DNA of 64,000 nt, taken from assembly GCA_963730855.1 (NCBI GenBank), contig CAVSTK010000010.1, positions 53,011 to 117,010 of the forward strand, read 5' to 3'. This DNA comes from an uncultured Actinomycetes bacterium (GTDB lineage: Bacteria > Actinomycetota > Actinomycetes > Mycobacteriales > Jatrophihabitantaceae). Both the position numbers and the translations under genes were made by a program. Shown here piece after piece: positions 52,147 to 55,826 of this stretch; the stretch's first letter is position 1; every line of letters starts with the position of its first letter. The notes under the pieces were generated by a model. That model saw only the letters and a list, made by a program, of their open reading frames with translations. It did not search any database and was not told the origin of the DNA.

Positions 52147-52954
52147 CTATTTGGTGGGGTGGTGGGCGTGTTCGGCGGCGGCTTCGGCTTGGGGGTTGGT
52201 GCCGAGGTAGGCCTCTTGGAGTCGGGGTCGGAGTTGGTCGGGGGTGCCTTGGGCGATGACTCGTCCGCCGCGGAGGATGTAGCCGCGGTTGCCGACGGAG
52301 AGGGCGAGGTTGACGTTTTGTTCGACGATGAGGACGCTGACGCCGAGTTCGGCGCGGATGCGGATGAGTGATTCGCCGAGGGTGTCGACGAGCATGGGGG
52401 CGAGGCCGAGGGAGGGTTCGTCGAGCATGATGAGTTGGGCGTGGCTCATCATGGCGCGGCCGACGGCGACCATTTGTTGTTGGCCGCCGCTGAGTTGGGC
52501 GGCTCGTTGGCGTCGTTTTTCGAAGAGGACGGGGAATAGGTCGTAGATGTTTTGTAGGCCGGGTTCGAGGTCGGCGGCGGGGCGGGTGTAGCCGCCCATT
52601 TTGAGGTTGTCTTCGACGCTGAGGTCGCCGAACATGCGGCGGTTTTGGGGGACGTGGGCGATGCCGCTGGTGACGACGTCCCAGGCTTTTTTGCCGATCA
52701 GGGATGTGCCTTGGAAGGACATGGTGCCGCTGCTGGGGCGTTCGAGTCCGGAGATGGTGCGCAGCAGGGTGGTTTTGCCGGCGCCGTTGGGGCCGACGAC
52801 GAACACGGATTCGCCTTTGCCCATCTGGATCGACAGGCCGTTGAGGGCGGTGGAGCCGCCGAAGCGGACGGTGAGGTCGTTGACCTGAAGGAACGGCTCG
52901 TCGCCGCGGTGGGTGTGCGGTCGCGCGGGTGGTGGGGGTGGTGGGTTCAGTCAT
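52147..52954 (-). pseudogene. livF: Branched-chain amino acid ABC transporter ATP-binding protein LivF; frame break in the first ~25 codons
   Basis: FLQVNDLTVRFGGSTALNGLSIQMGKGESVFVVGPNGAGKTTLL...LSGGQQQMVAVGRAMM...LIMLDEPSLGLAP. The only plausible ATG (52954, overlapping the livG stop) is in another frame. Confidence 0.85.
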
Positions 52955-53696
52955 CGTAGGACCCCAGGTATGCCTCGATTACGGGACGGGATTTGCGGGC
53001 GTCGTCGGGGCTGCCTTCGAAGATTTTGCGGCCGGCGTCGAGGACGATGACGCGGTCGGAGATGGGGAGCAGGAACGGCAGGTTGTGGTCGATGCAGGCG
53101 ACGCTGACGCCGCGGGGGGGTAGGGAGAGGATGACTTCGGCGAGGGAGGCGGTGTCGGTGTCGCTGAGGCCGGCGCCGGGTTCGTCGAGGAGGATGAGTT
53201 TGGGGGCGGTGGCCAGGGCGATGGCGACGCCGAGTTTGCGTTGTGAGCCGTAGGGCAGGGAGCGGCTGGGGGTGTCGGCGACGTCGGTGAGTTGGCAGGT
53301 GTGGAGGAGTTCGTCGGCGGAGATGCGGCGGGCTTTGTTGCGGGGTTGGGCGAGTTCGAGGTTTTCGCGGACGGTGAAGGTCCCGAACGCCATGGATTGT
53401 TGGAAGCTGCGGGCGAGGCCTTCGCGGACGAGGACGCGGGGTTTCTTGCCGCCGATCTGTTTGTTGTAGAGGTGGATGGTGCCGGCGGAGGGGGGCATGA
53501 ACCCGGAGATGACGTTGAACAGGGTCGTTTTGCCGGAGCCGTTCGGGCCGAGGACGGCGAGGATCTCGCGTTCGTGGACCTGGAAGGACACCCCGTCCAG
53601 GGCGATGACGCCGGCGAACTGCTTGCGCAGATTCTCCACCGTCAGGATGGTGGTCTGGGTCTGCGCCTGGACTTCGGTGGTGGTCATGCCAGTCAT
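52947..53696 (-). CDS. livG: Branched-chain amino acid ABC transporter ATP-binding protein LivG
   Basis: ATGA overlap with livM. LTVENLRKQFAGVIALDGVSFQVHEREILAVLGPNGSGKTTLFNVISG...LPYGSQRKLGVAIALA..PKLILLDEPGAGL. Confidence 0.9.
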   Translation of the reverse strand: MTGMTTTEVQAQTQTTILTVENLRKQFAGVIALDGVSFQVHEREILAVLGPNGSGKTTLFNVISGFMPPSAGTIHLYNKQIGGKKPRVLVREGLARSFQQSMAFGTFTVRENLELAQPRNKARRISADELLHTCQLTDVADTPSRSLPYGSQRKLGVAIALATAPKLILLDEPGAGLSDTDTASLAEVILSLPPRGVSVACIDHNLPFLLPISDRVIVLDAGRKIFEGSPDDARKSRPVIEAYLGSYDD

Positions 53697-54877
53697 ACGA
53701 GGTTCGCATTCGCGGGGTTGAGGCCGGTGGTGGCGGTCGATTCCAGGTCGAGGGCTTCGTGGTCGTTCGCCGACGGTGGGGGGGCGGCGCTGCGGCCGCG
53801 GAGGCGGTTGAGGAGGTTTTTGTATTCGGTGACGAAGATGCCGACGATGCCTTGCGGGGAGACCAGGATGATGACGATGAAGATCAGGCCGATGACGGCG
53901 TTGCTGATCAGCGGCCCCAACCCCAGCACGGTGGGCAGGAAGATCACGACGACCGAGCCGATGGTCGGGCCGAGCAGGTACGCGGACCCGCCGAGGAGCA
54001 TCACCACGATGAAGGTGATGGTGGCCTGCGGGGTGTATTGGCTGGGTACCACGTAGCCCTGCAGGAACGCCCAGTAGACCCCGCCGAGGCCGGCGAGGAC
54101 GCCGCTGGCCGCGAACCCCGTCATGTGCACCGCGGGGACGTTGATGCCGACCGAGATGGCCAGATCCCGGTTGTCGCGGATCGCTTTCAGCTGCTGACCC
54201 AGCTTGGAACGTTTGATCGCCTGCAAATACAGCAGCGACAGCATCAGCGACACCAACGTCACGTAGTACCAGTCCCGGTTGGAGCTGATCGTGACACTGA
54301 AGATGTTCACCCGCCGCGGCACGATGATGCCGGCCGGGCCGTCGGTGACCTGCGTCCAGTTGATCATGATGCCCTCGATCACCTCCGCGACCGCGAACAA
54401 CAAGATCACGAAATAACTGCCCCGCAGCCGGGCGCTGATCGAGGCCAGGACCGCCGCGATGATCGCCACCACCACAATCGCGAACAACGTCACCGGAATC
54501 GGGTCCCACGCCCGCTTCACCGTCAACGTCGCCGCGCAGTACGCCCCGATCCCCCACAGACTGCCGTGCACGATCGACAAAATCCCGCCATAGGAATACA
54601 ACAACGCGATCCCCGACGCGACCATCGCATAAATCATCGCCACCACACCGAGGTTCAACGTCGACTGCTTCGGGTCATCAAACAACACCAACCGACCCAC
54701 AATGCCGACCGCCACCACCGCCAGGACCGTGTACTTCCAATCAACCTTCTGACCCGCCACAAACGCATTAGCCCGCGTCGCCGCCGACCGCGCCGCCAAA
54801 ACATCGCGTAGCCGCTGCTGCACCGACCGGGCCGACTGGGGTGACTGGGTCGACTGGGGTGACTGTGCCGAACTCAC
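53693..54877 (-). CDS. livM: Branched-chain amino acid ABC transporter permease LivM
   Basis: GTG 54877 after ggagaggg. Polytopic; SIVHGSLWGIGAYCAA...QVTDGPAGI...LKAIRDNRDLAISVGINV...FAASGVLAGLGGVYWAF. Confidence 0.88.
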   Translation of the reverse strand: MSSAQSPQSTQSPQSARSVQQRLRDVLAARSAATRANAFVAGQKVDWKYTVLAVVAVGIVGRLVLFDDPKQSTLNLGVVAMIYAMVASGIALLYSYGGILSIVHGSLWGIGAYCAATLTVKRAWDPIPVTLFAIVVVAIIAAVLASISARLRGSYFVILLFAVAEVIEGIMINWTQVTDGPAGIIVPRRVNIFSVTISSNRDWYYVTLVSLMLSLLYLQAIKRSKLGQQLKAIRDNRDLAISVGINVPAVHMTGFAASGVLAGLGGVYWAFLQGYVVPSQYTPQATITFIVVMLLGGSAYLLGPTIGSVVVIFLPTVLGLGPLISNAVIGLIFIVIILVSPQGIVGIFVTEYKNLLNRLRGRSAAPPPSANDHEALDLESTATTGLNPANANLV

Positions 54878-54959
54878 AAGCTGGCCCTCTCCATTGAACA
54901 CGCCGCCGACATCGACGCAGCGCACATAACAGTCATCAGGTCGCTCATCAGGTCGCTCA

Positions 54960-55826
54960 TCAGAGGGTGTGCGCGATGCCGCGCAGCAACCCGTTCGGGC
55001 GGATCAGCAGGATCAGCACGATCACCCCGAACTCCAACGGATCCAGCCACGCCGACAACCCCGACGTGATGAAGATCGTCTCCATCACCGCGAACAACCC
55101 CGCCCCCAGGAACGCACCCCGGATGTTGCCCAACCCACCGACCAACGCGATCGCGAACCCCTTCAGGATCAACTCCCCACCCAACTGCGGCGTCAACGGC
55201 TGCAACGCCGACACGAACGCCCCACCCGCACCCGCCAACGCCCCACCGATCGCGAACGTCCCCGAAATCAACTTGCTCACCGGCGCCCCCATCAACGCCG
55301 CCGCCTCACTATCAATCGACGCCGCCCGAATCGCCACCCCCCGCCGGGTGTGATCGAAGTAGAAGATCGTCAACGCCAAAATCGCCGCCGTCCCGATGAT
55401 CACAATCACCTGATCCACCGACACGAACGTGTCACTGATATGCCACACCTTCGTCGAAATCGGCTTCACCAACACCGGATTCGTCGTGTAGTGGTAACTC
55501 AACCCACTCTCAATCACCTGCACCAGACCCAGCGACACCAGGAAACCGTTCACCGGCCGCACCAACGTCCACCGGAACAACACCCGCTCCAGAATGAAAC
55601 ACAACACCGCGATCCCGATAACCGCCGCCGCGAACCCCCACACGAACGCGATCCCACCACCCGCCGCCACGATGAACACCACATACCCACCGAGGGTCAG
55701 AAAGTCGCCATACGCCAAGTTAATGACCTGCGACATCCCGAACACAATCGTCAAACCCACCGCCACCAGCGTGTACGCAGAAGCAACACTCACCGTATTC
55801 ACCAACTGCTGAGGTAGCTCGTTCAC
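54960..55826 (-). CDS. livH: Branched-chain amino acid ABC transporter permease LivH
   Basis: LVNTVSVASAYTLVAVGLTIVFGMSQVINLAYGDFLTLGGY...RGVAIRAASIDSEAAALMG...GGLGNIRGAFLGA. Confidence 0.9.
   Translation of the reverse strand: MNELPQQLVNTVSVASAYTLVAVGLTIVFGMSQVINLAYGDFLTLGGYVVFIVAAGGGIAFVWGFAAAVIGIAVLCFILERVLFRWTLVRPVNGFLVSLGLVQVIESGLSYHYTTNPVLVKPISTKVWHISDTFVSVDQVIVIIGTAAILALTIFYFDHTRRGVAIRAASIDSEAAALMGAPVSKLISGTFAIGGALAGAGGAFVSALQPLTPQLGGELILKGFAIALVGGLGNIRGAFLGAGLFAVMETIFITSGLSAWLDPLEFGVIVLILLIRPNGLLRGIAHTL

Follow-up and report, generated by a model that had tools for sequence, protein, structure and literature searches.

A strand bias that reverses inside one operon

How does an operon whose genes all lie on one strand come to carry opposite strand compositions in its two halves? 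A sequence-only reading of the window (the whole 64-kb stretch of DNA analysed here) had placed four liv-type genes on the minus strand, and domain assignment agreed, with two BPD_transp_2 permeases and two ABC_tran ATPases, one of them carrying BCA_ABC_TP_C. The genes and compositional arms were as follows; skew values are given for the plus strand unless stated.

52147..52950, minus strand: livF ATPase (Pfam ABC_tran; frames; codon counts), given as the open frame from a CTG overlapping the livG stop codon
52947..53696, minus strand: livG ATPase (Pfam ABC_tran and BCA_ABC_TP_C; codon counts)
53693..54877, minus strand: livM permease (Pfam BPD_transp_2; fine skew profile; alignment with L014)
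54960..55826, minus strand: livH permease (Pfam BPD_transp_2; codon-position counts; codon table)
52137..53889: left arm, plus strand G/T-rich (skew and substitution counts)
53890..54110: transition zone, no strand assigned (change point of substitution direction)
54111..55850: right arm, minus strand G/T-rich (skew and substitution counts)

The plus strand had been described as G/T-rich over livF, livG and the 3' end of livM, and as C/A-rich over the 5' part of livM and livH. Sliding-window GC skew was +0.20 to +0.47 in the former region (52150-53900) and -0.20 to -0.42 in the latter (54300-55800), against a background outside the region of 0.012 on average (sd 0.062); just one other 300-nt window in the 64 kb reached 0.20. 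Summed over larger intervals, GC skew was +0.33 and AT skew -0.21 at 52147-53890, GC skew was +0.09 at 53891-54110, and the values reversed to -0.26 and +0.28, respectively, at 54111-55826. The hand counts reported for two 60-nt lines were exact (52141-52200, G31 C10 T17 A2; 55081-55140, C30 G11 A14 T5). Long stop-free alternative frames were found as well, for example at 51818-52954, 52951-53709 and 54969-55817, and the bias stopped at the operon edges, no more than about 10-50 nt from the stop codon of livF and the start codon of livH. The middle stretch of about 450 nt, taken earlier to be of ordinary composition, is better described as a graded transition with a change point near 54050. 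It lies in livM, whose 5' part is keto-rich, middle graded and 3' 180 nt amino-rich. The GC content of the block was the same as that of its surroundings. The mirror-image strand bias is therefore real and extreme, limited to the operon, visible at codon level and terminus-like in polarity, as first proposed.

Codon-position counts placed the skew at third codon positions. The most extreme bias of the operon was in livF (C3 0.734, A3 0.175, G3 0.087, T3 0.004), and livG was likewise amino-rich at silent sites of the coding strand (C3 0.73, A3 0.10, G3 0.14, T3 0.02). The coding strand of livH was keto-rich at such sites (G3 0.63, T3 0.15, C3 0.215, A3 0.003), a profile that resembles the left arm taken in complement (G 0.73, T 0.175, C 0.087, A 0.004). 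GC3 skew was -0.78 for livF and +0.48 for livH, whereas about 40 other ORFs of the window all fell between -0.32 and +0.04, a per-gene distribution that leaves both genes far outside. The codon preferences noted earlier were evident in the codon table, GCC, GGC, CTC, GAA, AAA and CAA in livF and livG, and GCG, GGG/GGT, GTG, TTG, ACG, ATT and AGT in livH. A run of 59 successive third positions in livG/livF held A or C alone, all 80 four-fold sites in the outermost 400 nt of the left arm were A- or C-ending, about 90% of Gln, Lys and Glu codons in livF were A-ending, and A occupied 1 of 288 third positions in livH. Two-fold sites of the right arm showed just 34% C-to-T change, against 67-89% G-to-A in the left arm. 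Resistance to the trend was codon-specific, with TTC the most resistant codon (TTC 17, TTT 1).

The bias is recent and arose in place

An independent ENA metagenome contig (L001), 93% identical to the window in nucleotide sequence, contained both skewed arms, so the pattern does not come from chimeric assembly. In a sister lineage (L013/L014) the orthologous operon is of normal composition and occupies the same locus, with an NHL gene upstream and PfkB and Meth_synt_2 genes downstream. The window operon was colinear with it across the transition, which also refutes a chimera. The bias was absent from all other orthologs examined save L001, and liv homologs at about 70% and 57% identity were all unskewed. 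Nucleotide identity to L013/L014 was 82-83% in the flanks and 79% in the liv genes, while amino-acid identity (LivH 92%, LivM 89%, LivG 88%, LivF 89%) matched the level of the flanking genes. Since an unskewed ortholog occupies the same locus in the sister lineage, the skew is recent in origin and arose in place. In the alignment with L014, its ATG GTG AGT falls opposite CTT GTG AGT of the window, and livM probably starts at the GTG at 54877.

These comparisons bear on the idea that the operon or its halves were imported from one or two foreign strand-asymmetric replicons, or misjoined in assembly. High-GC organisms whose genomes are strongly strand-skewed throughout do exist, as on contig L115, where GC3 skew is about +/-0.55 for genes of either orientation, and the DNA adjoining livF is variable, with a foreign-looking hydrolase gene. 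However, the two halves diverge from the sister-lineage ortholog to the same degree, at the level of the flanking genes, which does not support two donors or orientations and makes import from a strongly asymmetric replicon unlikely. A foreign terminus would also need to coincide exactly with the midpoint of the imported piece, the GC content matches the surroundings, and the pattern recurs in two independent assemblies. We regard this explanation as close to refuted.

Substitutions run in opposite directions in the two arms

Substitution direction was scored on the coding strand with the unskewed L014 ortholog as reference. The right arm showed about 18 amino-to-keto and 2 keto-to-amino changes per 100 nt, a ratio of about 9:1, and this was reversed in the left arm (about 15 keto-to-amino and 1 amino-to-keto per 100 nt). 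At third positions of livH, 108 of 159 ancestral C were now G (73) or T (35) and 96 of 105 G were retained; in livG and livF, 152 of 196 G were now C (98) or A (54), with C retained at 240 of 256. In the flanks, 24-29% of sites had changed, in either direction. All four keto-to-amino change types contributed, G-to-C transversions included, and G/C transversions were the largest change class in the block; within-class transversions (G/T, A/C) were not elevated. In each half, amino bases (A, C) were gained on the strand whose 3' end faces the outer edge of the block, and keto bases (G, T) on its partner. The process continued after the window and L001 split, with 26 C-to-T changes in the right arm of L001.

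The maximum-likelihood change point of substitution direction was at 54050 (support 53887-54108) and the geometric midpoint of the block at 53987-54008, a coincidence with about 6% probability by accident. At four-fold sites the bias rose from centre to edge, from 0.59 to 0.98 in the right arm and from 0.66 to 1.00 in the left, and the gradient was also present on two-fold sites (Spearman p = 0.01 and 0.002).

Amino-acid-changing substitutions shared the bias (21:12 right, 20:44 left; Fisher p = 0.004). Protein evolution was not accelerated, as replacements numbered 28 derived in the window and 25 derived in L014, and the Liv proteins are under purifying selection throughout.

Junctions and flanks of the block

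The junctions and flanks of the operon contained the following features.

52900..52948, minus strand: C/A-rich insertion of 49 nt at the livG-livF junction (C 0.66, A 0.24, T 0)
54824..54963, minus strand: remodelled livH-livM junction (tandem repeats, G/T-shifted spacer)
55827..55878, minus strand: conserved leader 5' of livH, the last stretch homologous to L014
51235..52068, minus strand: alpha/beta-hydrolase gene in the variable slot adjoining livF (GC3 0.67, atypical against 0.80-0.89 elsewhere)

The livG-livF insertion is missing from the unskewed ortholog and measures 55 nt in L001. It includes a 9-nt tandem repeat at 52927-52945, shifts the canonical livF ATG at 52954 one base out of frame, and has a keto-minus-amino value of -0.79, in line with the local bias. 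The livH-livM junction, hypervariable between the window and L001, contains a 12-nt tandem repeat at 54933-54963 and a spacer shifted towards G/T (keto-minus-amino +0.22 against -0.24 in L014), and a 9/18-nt tandem repeat (54825-54871) lengthens the LivM N-terminus by about 15 codons. Each intergenic junction in the skewed alleles had a cluster of tandem duplications and indels. As inserts, non-coding sequence and replacement changes all follow the local bias, the force acts on DNA and is not codon-level selection.

Homology to both L001 and L014 stopped about 10 nt past the livF stop, and on the other side the composition of the livH leader was unchanged in the window, with no homology to L014 upstream of it (55879-56345). 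The block is thus a homology island with both flanks non-homologous to L014, and what adjoins livF differs in all three sequences: the hydrolase gene in the window, lipocalin plus lysX-like genes in L001, and a copy of Meth_synt_2 in L014. The L001 genes beside livF converge on it, the convergent neighbour being unskewed (GC3 skew -0.20), while the livF neighbour in the window is co-directional with liv. GC skew was 0.000 in the left flank of the window and +0.052 in the right, with no replichore-scale sign change. No palindrome or special site was found at the block centre, the block contained no terminal inverted repeats or replication genes, and a promoter scan found nothing relevant. Among the other products of the window are an AbsR2-like regulator and an F420-dependent LLM oxidoreductase, in keeping with an actinobacterial host, which is the probable one.

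Taken together, these results show a lineage-specific directional substitution process that acted in place, at the DNA level and on opposite strands in the two halves of the livHMGF block (about 52137-55870).

Resemblance to known systems

Replication-associated skew likewise enriches one strand in G/T against a C/A complement and changes sign with terminus polarity. The liv block, however, is 3.7 kb and not a replichore, its third-position skew of 0.5-0.8 far exceeds that of other genes in the window, and the skew is absent from the flanks and the sister-lineage ortholog. Vertebrate mitochondrial DNA shows an asymmetry between H and L strands, and the skews of linear genomes that replicate from their ends, such as those of adenovirus and phi29, switch at the genome centre. 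The near absence of silent G and T from the coding strand of the left arm is reminiscent of the former, and the mirror polarity, strongest at the ends, is that expected from 5'-ended strand displacement at both ends of the latter. Such skews are ascribed to transitions that follow the deamination of C and A. Here G/C transversions dominate, and the block is an operon of the chromosome, has an ortholog of normal composition and lacks terminal inverted repeats and replication genes.

GC-biased gene conversion is a transmission bias that stems from the handling of mismatches in recombination heteroduplex. The liv pattern resembles it in behaving as a fixation bias on all site classes would, with the favoured direction raised, the reverse lowered and no overall acceleration of protein evolution; the axis here is keto/amino and not GC/AT, GC content is unchanged, and the effect is strand-specific with a flip at the midpoint. 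Mutation clusters of the kataegis and AID/APOBEC type, which are associated with breaks or R-loops, share the strand-coordinated loss of C (C-to-T and C-to-G) and a point at which the affected strand switches. The liv block differs from them in being near saturation over evolutionary time and not a single event, in losing A too, in lacking a TpC preference, and in having its lowest density at the switch, not its highest.

A possible recombination filter and its rivals

We tentatively favour a strand-polar recombination heteroduplex, formed in the homology island and filtered by a presumed NucS/EndoMS; this mechanism is unproven. As the flanks are heterologous, recombination with related alleles would have to put both crossover junctions inside the block. 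At the left junction the recipient plus strand would be paired with a donor minus-strand 3' tail, and at the right junction the strand roles would be swapped. The endonuclease would cut G.T, G.G and T.T mispairs and ignore A.C, C.C and A.A, and the survivors would be solely donor alleles that place a keto base on the recipient-strand side. Many repeated events would then produce a mirror-image keto/amino drive that vanishes at the midpoint and is greatest at the edges, supplied mainly by synonymous differences among alleles.

NucS/EndoMS of Actinobacteria is reported to cleave only G/T, G/G and T/T (PMC6159521), which corresponds exactly to the dichotomy in the data, with keto-keto mispairs avoided and amino-amino ones tolerated. 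Loss of nucS increases homeologous recombination (PMC5290159), and G:C>C:G is the largest residual substitution class in wild-type Streptomyces (PMC11109965). NucS may be involved at the liv block; the literature searched held no report of a local, polar compositional footprint of NucS. Several points weigh against the filter. Where a heteroduplex carries many mismatches, cleavage might end the whole event instead of sorting individual sites, and the skew-free sister operon calls for some peculiarity of the skewed clade, for instance a second copy or flanks that became heterologous only lately. The A-ending Gln, Lys and Glu codons of livF could be reached only if A-ending alleles were supplied, and these are rare in relatives; the arms are imperfectly symmetric at two-fold sites; and the 5' leader lies within the homology block yet is unchanged in the window.

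Convergent transcription, with sense transcripts from the livH promoter meeting antisense transcripts entering from the livF end, could instead damage the non-template strand, as bubbles and R-loops would expose it to loss of C and A and G-richness would favour further R-loops in a self-feeding manner. In each arm, inward transcription would have the keto-rich strand as its non-template strand, the block limits lie near those of a plausible transcription unit, the gradient fits polymerase traffic thinned by collision, genes do converge on livF in L001, and sense-strand G3+ runs in the 5' half are doubled (51 against 27 in L014). However, the excess of C-to-G over C-to-T in livH, and of G-to-C over G-to-A in livG/livF, is not a deamination product. 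The convergent neighbour in L001 is itself unskewed, the livF neighbour in the window is co-directional, the transcribed leader is unshifted in the window and the promoter scan offered no relevant signal; dominant antisense transcription over livG/livF would also starve the cell of ATPases that are under purifying selection. Skews known to be linked to transcription are smaller by an order of magnitude, and we consider this source unlikely.

Local replication or repair would involve strand-specific synthesis or single-strand exposure of one strand per arm, through forks converging or stalling in livM, two-end nick-initiated strand displacement, or recurrent breaks with fill-in, with NucS-invisible misincorporations or single-strand damage accumulating. 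The polarity agrees, as forks that meet at the centre would have the keto-rich strand as their leading strand; in nucS-deficient Streptomyces lines A>G and C>T are in 3:1 excess on the leading strand (PMC11109965), and the junction duplications and indels suggest slippage-prone synthesis. Against this, the flanks lack a replichore-scale sign change, the effect ends sharply with the operon, the bias peaks at the edges, opposite to resection from a central break, and the centre has no special site. A local mutation rate raised several-fold is also hard to square with amino-acid replacement that is not accelerated, and an origin in replication or repair seems rather improbable. Selection on the nucleic acid itself fares poorly as well. 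It could have favoured an mRNA whose 3' half is rich in C, poor in G and weakly folded and so a substrate of Rho or RNase E, altering the ATPase/permease balance, or codon-biased translation of NNG-rich and NNC-rich messages. Predicted folding of the livG-livF mRNA does weaken, from -48 in the ortholog to -30 kcal/mol per 120 nt, silent sites have changed almost to saturation while the proteins have not, and codons such as TTC resist the trend; but folding of the right arm is hardly weaker than in the ortholog (-42 against -46). The complementary profiles of the arms are predicted by a DNA-strand process and not by RNA-level selection, the switch falls inside a gene at the block midpoint, and inserts, non-coding sequence and replacements share the bias. 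We know of no tRNA logic that links C-ending with A-ending codons, or G-ending with T-ending ones, and selection of this kind is quite doubtful.

Whether or not a heteroduplex filter was at work, nearly all silent positions of a transporter operon have been rewritten, in mirror image by half, and no described mechanism accounts for such rewriting.

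A mirror-image strand skew confined to the livHMGF operon

Four minus-strand genes of the window encode an ABC importer of the LivHMGF type (branched-chain amino acid family), with two BPD_transp_2 permeases followed by two ABC_tran ATPases, and Pfam matches past threshold were obtained for all four. BCA_ABC_TP_C in LivG was marginal, since it scored 24.4 bits against a cut-off of 25.5. The strand composition of this operon, which we call the block, falls into two arms of opposite sign:

About 52137-55870, minus strand: livHMGF operon (the block), 5' to 3' livH, livM, livG, livF
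52150-53900: left arm (livF, livG and the 3' end of livM), plus-strand GC skew of +0.20 to +0.47
54300-55800: right arm (the 5' part of livM, and livH), plus-strand GC skew of -0.20 to -0.42

The AT skew was opposite in sign to the GC skew over both arms. In the rest of the window, the mean GC skew in windows of 300 nt was 0.012 (sd 0.062), with just one reaching 0.20. The GC content of the block (0.60-0.69) was the same as that of its surroundings. The sequence-only reading had counted bases by hand in 60-nt lines, and both counts proved exact.

The skew was concentrated at third codon positions, with C and A favoured in livF (C 0.734, A 0.175, G 0.087, T 0.004) and livG (C 0.73, A 0.10, G 0.14, T 0.02), and G and T in livH (G 0.63, T 0.15, C 0.215, A 0.003). 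In livG/livF, 59 codons in a row carried only A or C at position 3, and A was present at 1 of 288 third positions of livH. The earlier claim that these values lie far from the ordinary was borne out, as the GC3 skew was -0.78 in livF and +0.48 in livH compared to -0.32 to +0.04 in about 40 other ORFs of the window. For an outside control, we used 60 high-GC metagenome ABC ATPase genes preselected for A/C-ending Walker A codons, which were drawn from metagenome DNA-pattern matches (Walker A with A/C-ending codons) at 120 unrelated loci. None of these 120 loci was similar to the liv block by BLAST, the pattern being too permissive. The control GC3 skew ranged from -0.56 to +0.04, and the contig of the extreme gene was skewed throughout. 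The four-base third-position profile was common to both arms of the block when one was read in complement, which favours a process acting on DNA strands over selection on codons or tRNAs. The open alternative frames were rejected as overlapping genes, because their translations were low-complexity strings of Pro/Arg/Thr/His or Gly/Asp/Arg, as a result of base composition.

The block contained the four transporter genes only, and the ORFs immediately either side encode a hydrolase and an NHL-repeat protein. No periplasmic binding-protein gene (Peripla_BP_6) was found beside the operon at the window locus (50000-58700), and no substrate-binding-protein gene lay near the operon in the related contig L014; a Peripla_BP_6 gene adjoins the operon in the more distant relatives L002, L003, L011 and L012. 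Other genes of the window encode an F420-dependent LLM oxidoreductase, an AbsR2-like regulator, GlgX and MetK, which would be compatible with a high-GC actinobacterium. Rfam and tRNA scans of the window gave no match, and matches in a promoter/terminator consensus scan were at chance level.

Window LivH (54960-55826) was not found in a collection of 15 billion proteins. The neighbouring hydrolase (a 100%-identical match, P0121) and LivF (P0243, in a cluster of four sequences from four contigs), encoded on the same contig, were present there. The strong skew of this region may have misled gene callers. A scan of a genome collection with LivH gave only Firmicutes relatives of 35% identity, and a plasmid collection gave only generic ABC ATPase similarity.

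An independent skewed copy and an unskewed ortholog

A 99%-identical homolog of LivH was found on L001, an independent ENA metagenome contig. L001 aligned to window positions 55850-52137 at 93% nucleotide identity and reproduced both arms. The differences between the two were mostly synonymous, which argues against sequencing or polishing error, as such errors would ignore codon degeneracy. The suggestion of an assembly chimera can also be set aside, as L001 carries both arms and the window is colinear with both L001 and L014 across 53800-54400.

Contigs L013 and L014, which represent a sister lineage, were reached through the protein cluster of a homolog of 91% identity. The neighbourhood in L014 is as in the window, with a gene for an NHL-repeat protein upstream and those for PfkB and Meth_synt_2 downstream, and nucleotide identity to the window was 82-83% in the flanks and 79% in the liv operon. 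The L013/L014 ortholog showed no skew whatever, and composition was ordinary in seven homologous operons with LivH identity of 55-70%; the pattern is thus not typical of the lineage, a possibility that had been raised as a test of the earlier reading. Many genes of L014 (GCA_037975565.1, JBBCBH010013909.1) occur in short pieces (livH of 151 aa; several of 33-70 aa), which suggests frameshift errors in that assembly; despite this, its nucleotide sequence matches that of L013, from another sample, exactly over 2674 aligned bases.

Third-position differences between the window and L014 were 0.38-0.47 in the liv genes and 0.27-0.37 in five flanking genes, and first- and second-position differences were alike in both sets. 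LivH, LivM, LivG and LivF were each within 88-92% identity to the L014 proteins. With the same locus, these protein identities and flank-like differences at positions 1 and 2, both halves of the operon are vertical orthologs. This removes the proposals that the operon was assembled from two donors or acquired from a foreign, skewed replicon, the latter being further at odds with a GC content like that of the surroundings. Comparison of these sequences shows that the skew arose in place and recently.

Substitutions follow the chemical class of the base

We used L014 as a stand-in for the ancestor to count substitutions. The 159 C3 sites of livH had become G in 73 cases and T in 35, with 51 retained as C and none changed to A, and 96 of 105 G3 sites were kept. 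In livG and livF taken together, 196 G3 sites had become C (98) or A (54) or were retained (44, at least 14 of them in Met or Trp codons), and 240 of 256 C3 sites were kept. Class switches in the flanks affected 24-29% of C3 or G3 sites, in either direction. Within-class exchanges (G/T, A/C) amounted to 2.4-4.2% in the block and 4.0% in the flanks. Taken together, these counts indicate that the rule is one of chemical class, keto (G, T) versus amino (A, C), acting on opposite strands in the two arms. On the coding strand, there were about 18 amino-to-keto versus 2 keto-to-amino changes per 100 nt in the right arm, and about 1 versus 15 in the left arm.

The dominant changes on the amino-gaining strand were G>C, G>A and T>C, and transversions were the largest contributor to change. 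Deamination of C or A as the sole cause was rejected because G/C transversions formed the largest class, and oxidative G-to-T damage because G/T exchanges were not raised. Amino-acid-changing substitutions were biased likewise, with amino-to-keto to keto-to-amino ratios of 21:12 in the right arm and 20:44 in the left arm (Fisher p = 0.004). Where livG meets livF, a 49-nt insert (C 0.66, A 0.24, T 0) followed the local regime, as did the livH-livM spacer, whose keto-minus-amino value was +0.22 in the window versus -0.24 in L014. The exception among new sequence was a C-rich tandem repeat at the LivM N-terminus, which departed from the local regime.

By our estimate from the substitution counts, the favoured silent changes ran about 8-fold faster than those of the flanks. 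When outgroups were used in a relative-rate test, 28 replacements were assigned to the window lineage and 25 to L014 (12 versus 12 in livG and livF), so that protein evolution was not faster in the skewed lineage. An approximately 8-fold local increase in mutation rate would show in the proteins, and the test therefore argues against a plain rate increase, at a strength that is borderline and not decisive.

After the split between the window and L001, the right arm of L001 gained 26 more C-to-T changes against 1 reversal. At 15 sites, one of the two sequences has G and the other T, with a third base in L014. The process thus continued after this split.

Geometry and ends of the block

The maximum-likelihood position for the change in direction was 54050 (2-lnL support interval 53887-54108). 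The midpoint of the block is at 53987-54008, and random placement would put the switch this near about 6% of the time. At four-fold sites, the fraction of bases in the favoured class from the centre to the edge was 0.59, 0.81, 0.73, 0.88, 0.98 and 0.91 in the right arm, and 0.66, 0.72, 0.94, 0.83, 0.90 and 1.00 in the left arm. Two-fold sites were less saturated and showed the same outward trend (Spearman p = 0.01 and 0.002). The weakness of the bias at the centre and its strength at the ends led us to reject resection from a central double-strand break.

Homology between the window and L014 extended about 10 nt past the livF stop at one end and, at the other, about 52 nt into the sequence upstream of livH, counted from its start, and the 467-nt intergenic region upstream of livH could not be aligned with L014. 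The slot next to livF is occupied in the window by an alpha/beta hydrolase gene with an atypical, foreign-looking GC3 of 0.67, in L014 (13530-14762) by a second Meth_synt_2 copy, 79% identical to window 58785-59990, and in L001 (3743-4300) by convergent lipocalin and lysX-like genes. Loss of homology on both sides, together with the differing slot, makes the block a homology island between heterologous flanks. In this slot (window 51235-52137), the breakpoints of the window, L001 and L014 all fall about 10 nt past the livF stop, and the slot has the appearance of a hotspot for rearrangement or insertion. We rejected a long-range panhandle, of RNA or DNA, linking the two halves, as inverted repeats were short, scattered and not colinear.

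Repeats at the junctions and the start of livF

Short tandem repeats (periods of 9, 12, 14 and 18 nt) were present at the operon junctions and upstream:

52927-52945: short tandem repeat
54825-54871: short tandem repeat
54933-54963: short tandem repeat
55885-55921: short tandem repeat

The alignable junctions of L014 are much shorter and are without the corresponding repeat stretches. At matching positions, the repeat units of the window differ from those of L001, and divergence between the two sequences was over-dispersed (index 3.5), with peaks at the repeat-bearing junctions.

The livF ATG overlaps the livG stop as ATGACTGA, and the unskewed ortholog has it in frame (MTEPFLEV, 9 nt to CCGTT). 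A C/A-rich insertion shifts this ATG one base out of frame in the window and L001, where its distance to CCGTT is 58 nt (52896-52954) and 64 nt (about 2920-3000), respectively. Ahead of the Walker A region, the LivF frame has no ATG, GTG or TTG, and its first sense codon is the CTG that overlaps the TGA of livG. In P0332, a related allele, there is instead an in-frame insertion of 9 codons. Since LivF is still under purifying selection, its translation must begin at a non-canonical codon or involve a +1 frameshift.

Comparison with known skews and possible mechanisms

The polarity of the block is that of a replication terminus, with G and T enriched on the plus strand to the left of the switch and C and A to the right. 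Unlike a terminus, however, the skew does not continue into the flanks (GC skew of 0.000 on the left and +0.052 on the right), where no replichore-scale sign change was seen across the window, and L013/L014 are unskewed. The G/T-rich coding strand of livH and the 5' part of livM resembles transcription-associated asymmetry, but the sign is reversed in the 3' end of livM, livG and livF. Unlike kataegis-like break clusters, the bias is lowest at the switch and highest at the edges, and the deaminase motif of such clusters does not describe the block, where TTC is the least-changed codon. Unlike an end-primed strand-displacement replicon, the block has no inverted repeat that joins its two ends and carries transporter genes only. 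Full-text literature searches gave no description of an operon-scale, mirror-image, near-saturated or strand-coordinated local skew in bacteria.

On a metagenome contig of 60% GC (WNGL01119791.1, 1-3029; L115), one strand is G-rich throughout, whatever the gene orientation; genes of one strand have C3 of 0.58-0.61 and G3 of 0.16-0.21, and the opposite-strand gene has G3 of 0.58 and C3 of 0.16. This contig is from an organism or replicon in which strand asymmetry is unusually strong and genome-wide, a different phenomenon, and was rejected as a further case, as was locus L123, which showed only mild bias.

Actinobacteria use NucS/EndoMS in place of MutS/MutL for mismatch repair. The favoured changes in the block are exactly those that pass through A.C, C.C or A.A mispairs on one strand, and within-class transversions are unaffected. 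NucS/EndoMS cuts G/T, G/G and T/T mispairs but not A/C, C/C or A/A (PMC6159521), and the class rule deduced from the data is this same dichotomy. The enzyme also restrains homeologous recombination (PMC5290159), and G:C>C:G is the largest substitution class in wild-type Streptomyces (PMC11109965). We tentatively favour crossover heteroduplex in the homology island, filtered by NucS/EndoMS, as the cause, while considering it on balance unlikely to be correct. Any exchange with a related allele would need to have its two crossover junctions inside the island. At the left junction, the recipient plus strand would pair with the 3' tail of the donor minus strand, with the reverse at the right junction, and heteroduplex sites would survive only if both mispaired bases were amino. 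Surviving sites would then import keto alleles, on the plus strand at the left and on the minus strand at the right. The probability of a left junction would rise toward the left, and that of a right junction toward the right, and from such graded positions the net drive would be expected to fall linearly to zero at the midpoint. Allele differences would be in large supply at silent sites and in small supply at replacement sites, which would explain saturation without faster protein evolution. The weak points of a NucS mechanism are that the sister lineage is unskewed, that A-ending codons make up about 90% of those for Gln, Lys and Glu in livF, and that the arms are asymmetric at two-fold sites.

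Damage to the non-template strand under convergent transcription would account for the polarity, the limits of the block and the gradient. It leaves the transversions unexplained, however, and the convergent neighbour in L001 is unskewed, the leader is unchanged, and LivG and LivF are still needed. The polarity and the slippage-prone junctions would fit a local replication or repair process, with which neither the sharp edges nor the protein rate test agree. Selection on RNA predicts neither the complement symmetry nor the midpoint switch; the one number in its support is a weakening of predicted folding in the 3' half, from -48 to -30 kcal/mol per 120 nt.

Implications

Strand compositional asymmetry is usually weak and genome-scale, and is taken as a by-product of replication or transcription. 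The asymmetry described here is local, mirror-symmetric and close to saturation, and it can be dated against an ortholog that has no skew. Through a process at the DNA level, an operon can have about 80% of its exchangeable silent sites recoded while its proteins stay untouched, in about the time taken for flanking silent sites to diverge by a third. Codon-usage screens would wrongly label such blocks as foreign. If the cause is transcriptional or replicative, the block marks an unusually mutagenic local structure. If it is the blindness of mismatch repair to certain mispairs in recombination heteroduplex, the block would be a keto/amino analogue of GC-biased gene conversion and a natural in vivo read-out of NucS, whose handling of breaks and strands is not yet settled (PMC11109965). 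We think it rather doubtful that a strand-polar transmission bias arising from the substrate blindness of NucS/EndoMS on crossover heteroduplex, a force undescribed in bacteria, is at work here. If it is, this drive could rewrite nearly all silent sites of a gene block in the time that a species takes to split, leaving a mirror keto/amino footprint that would end where homology ends and pass through zero at the midpoint, and could, if confirmed, prove to be a categorically new kind of asymmetry.
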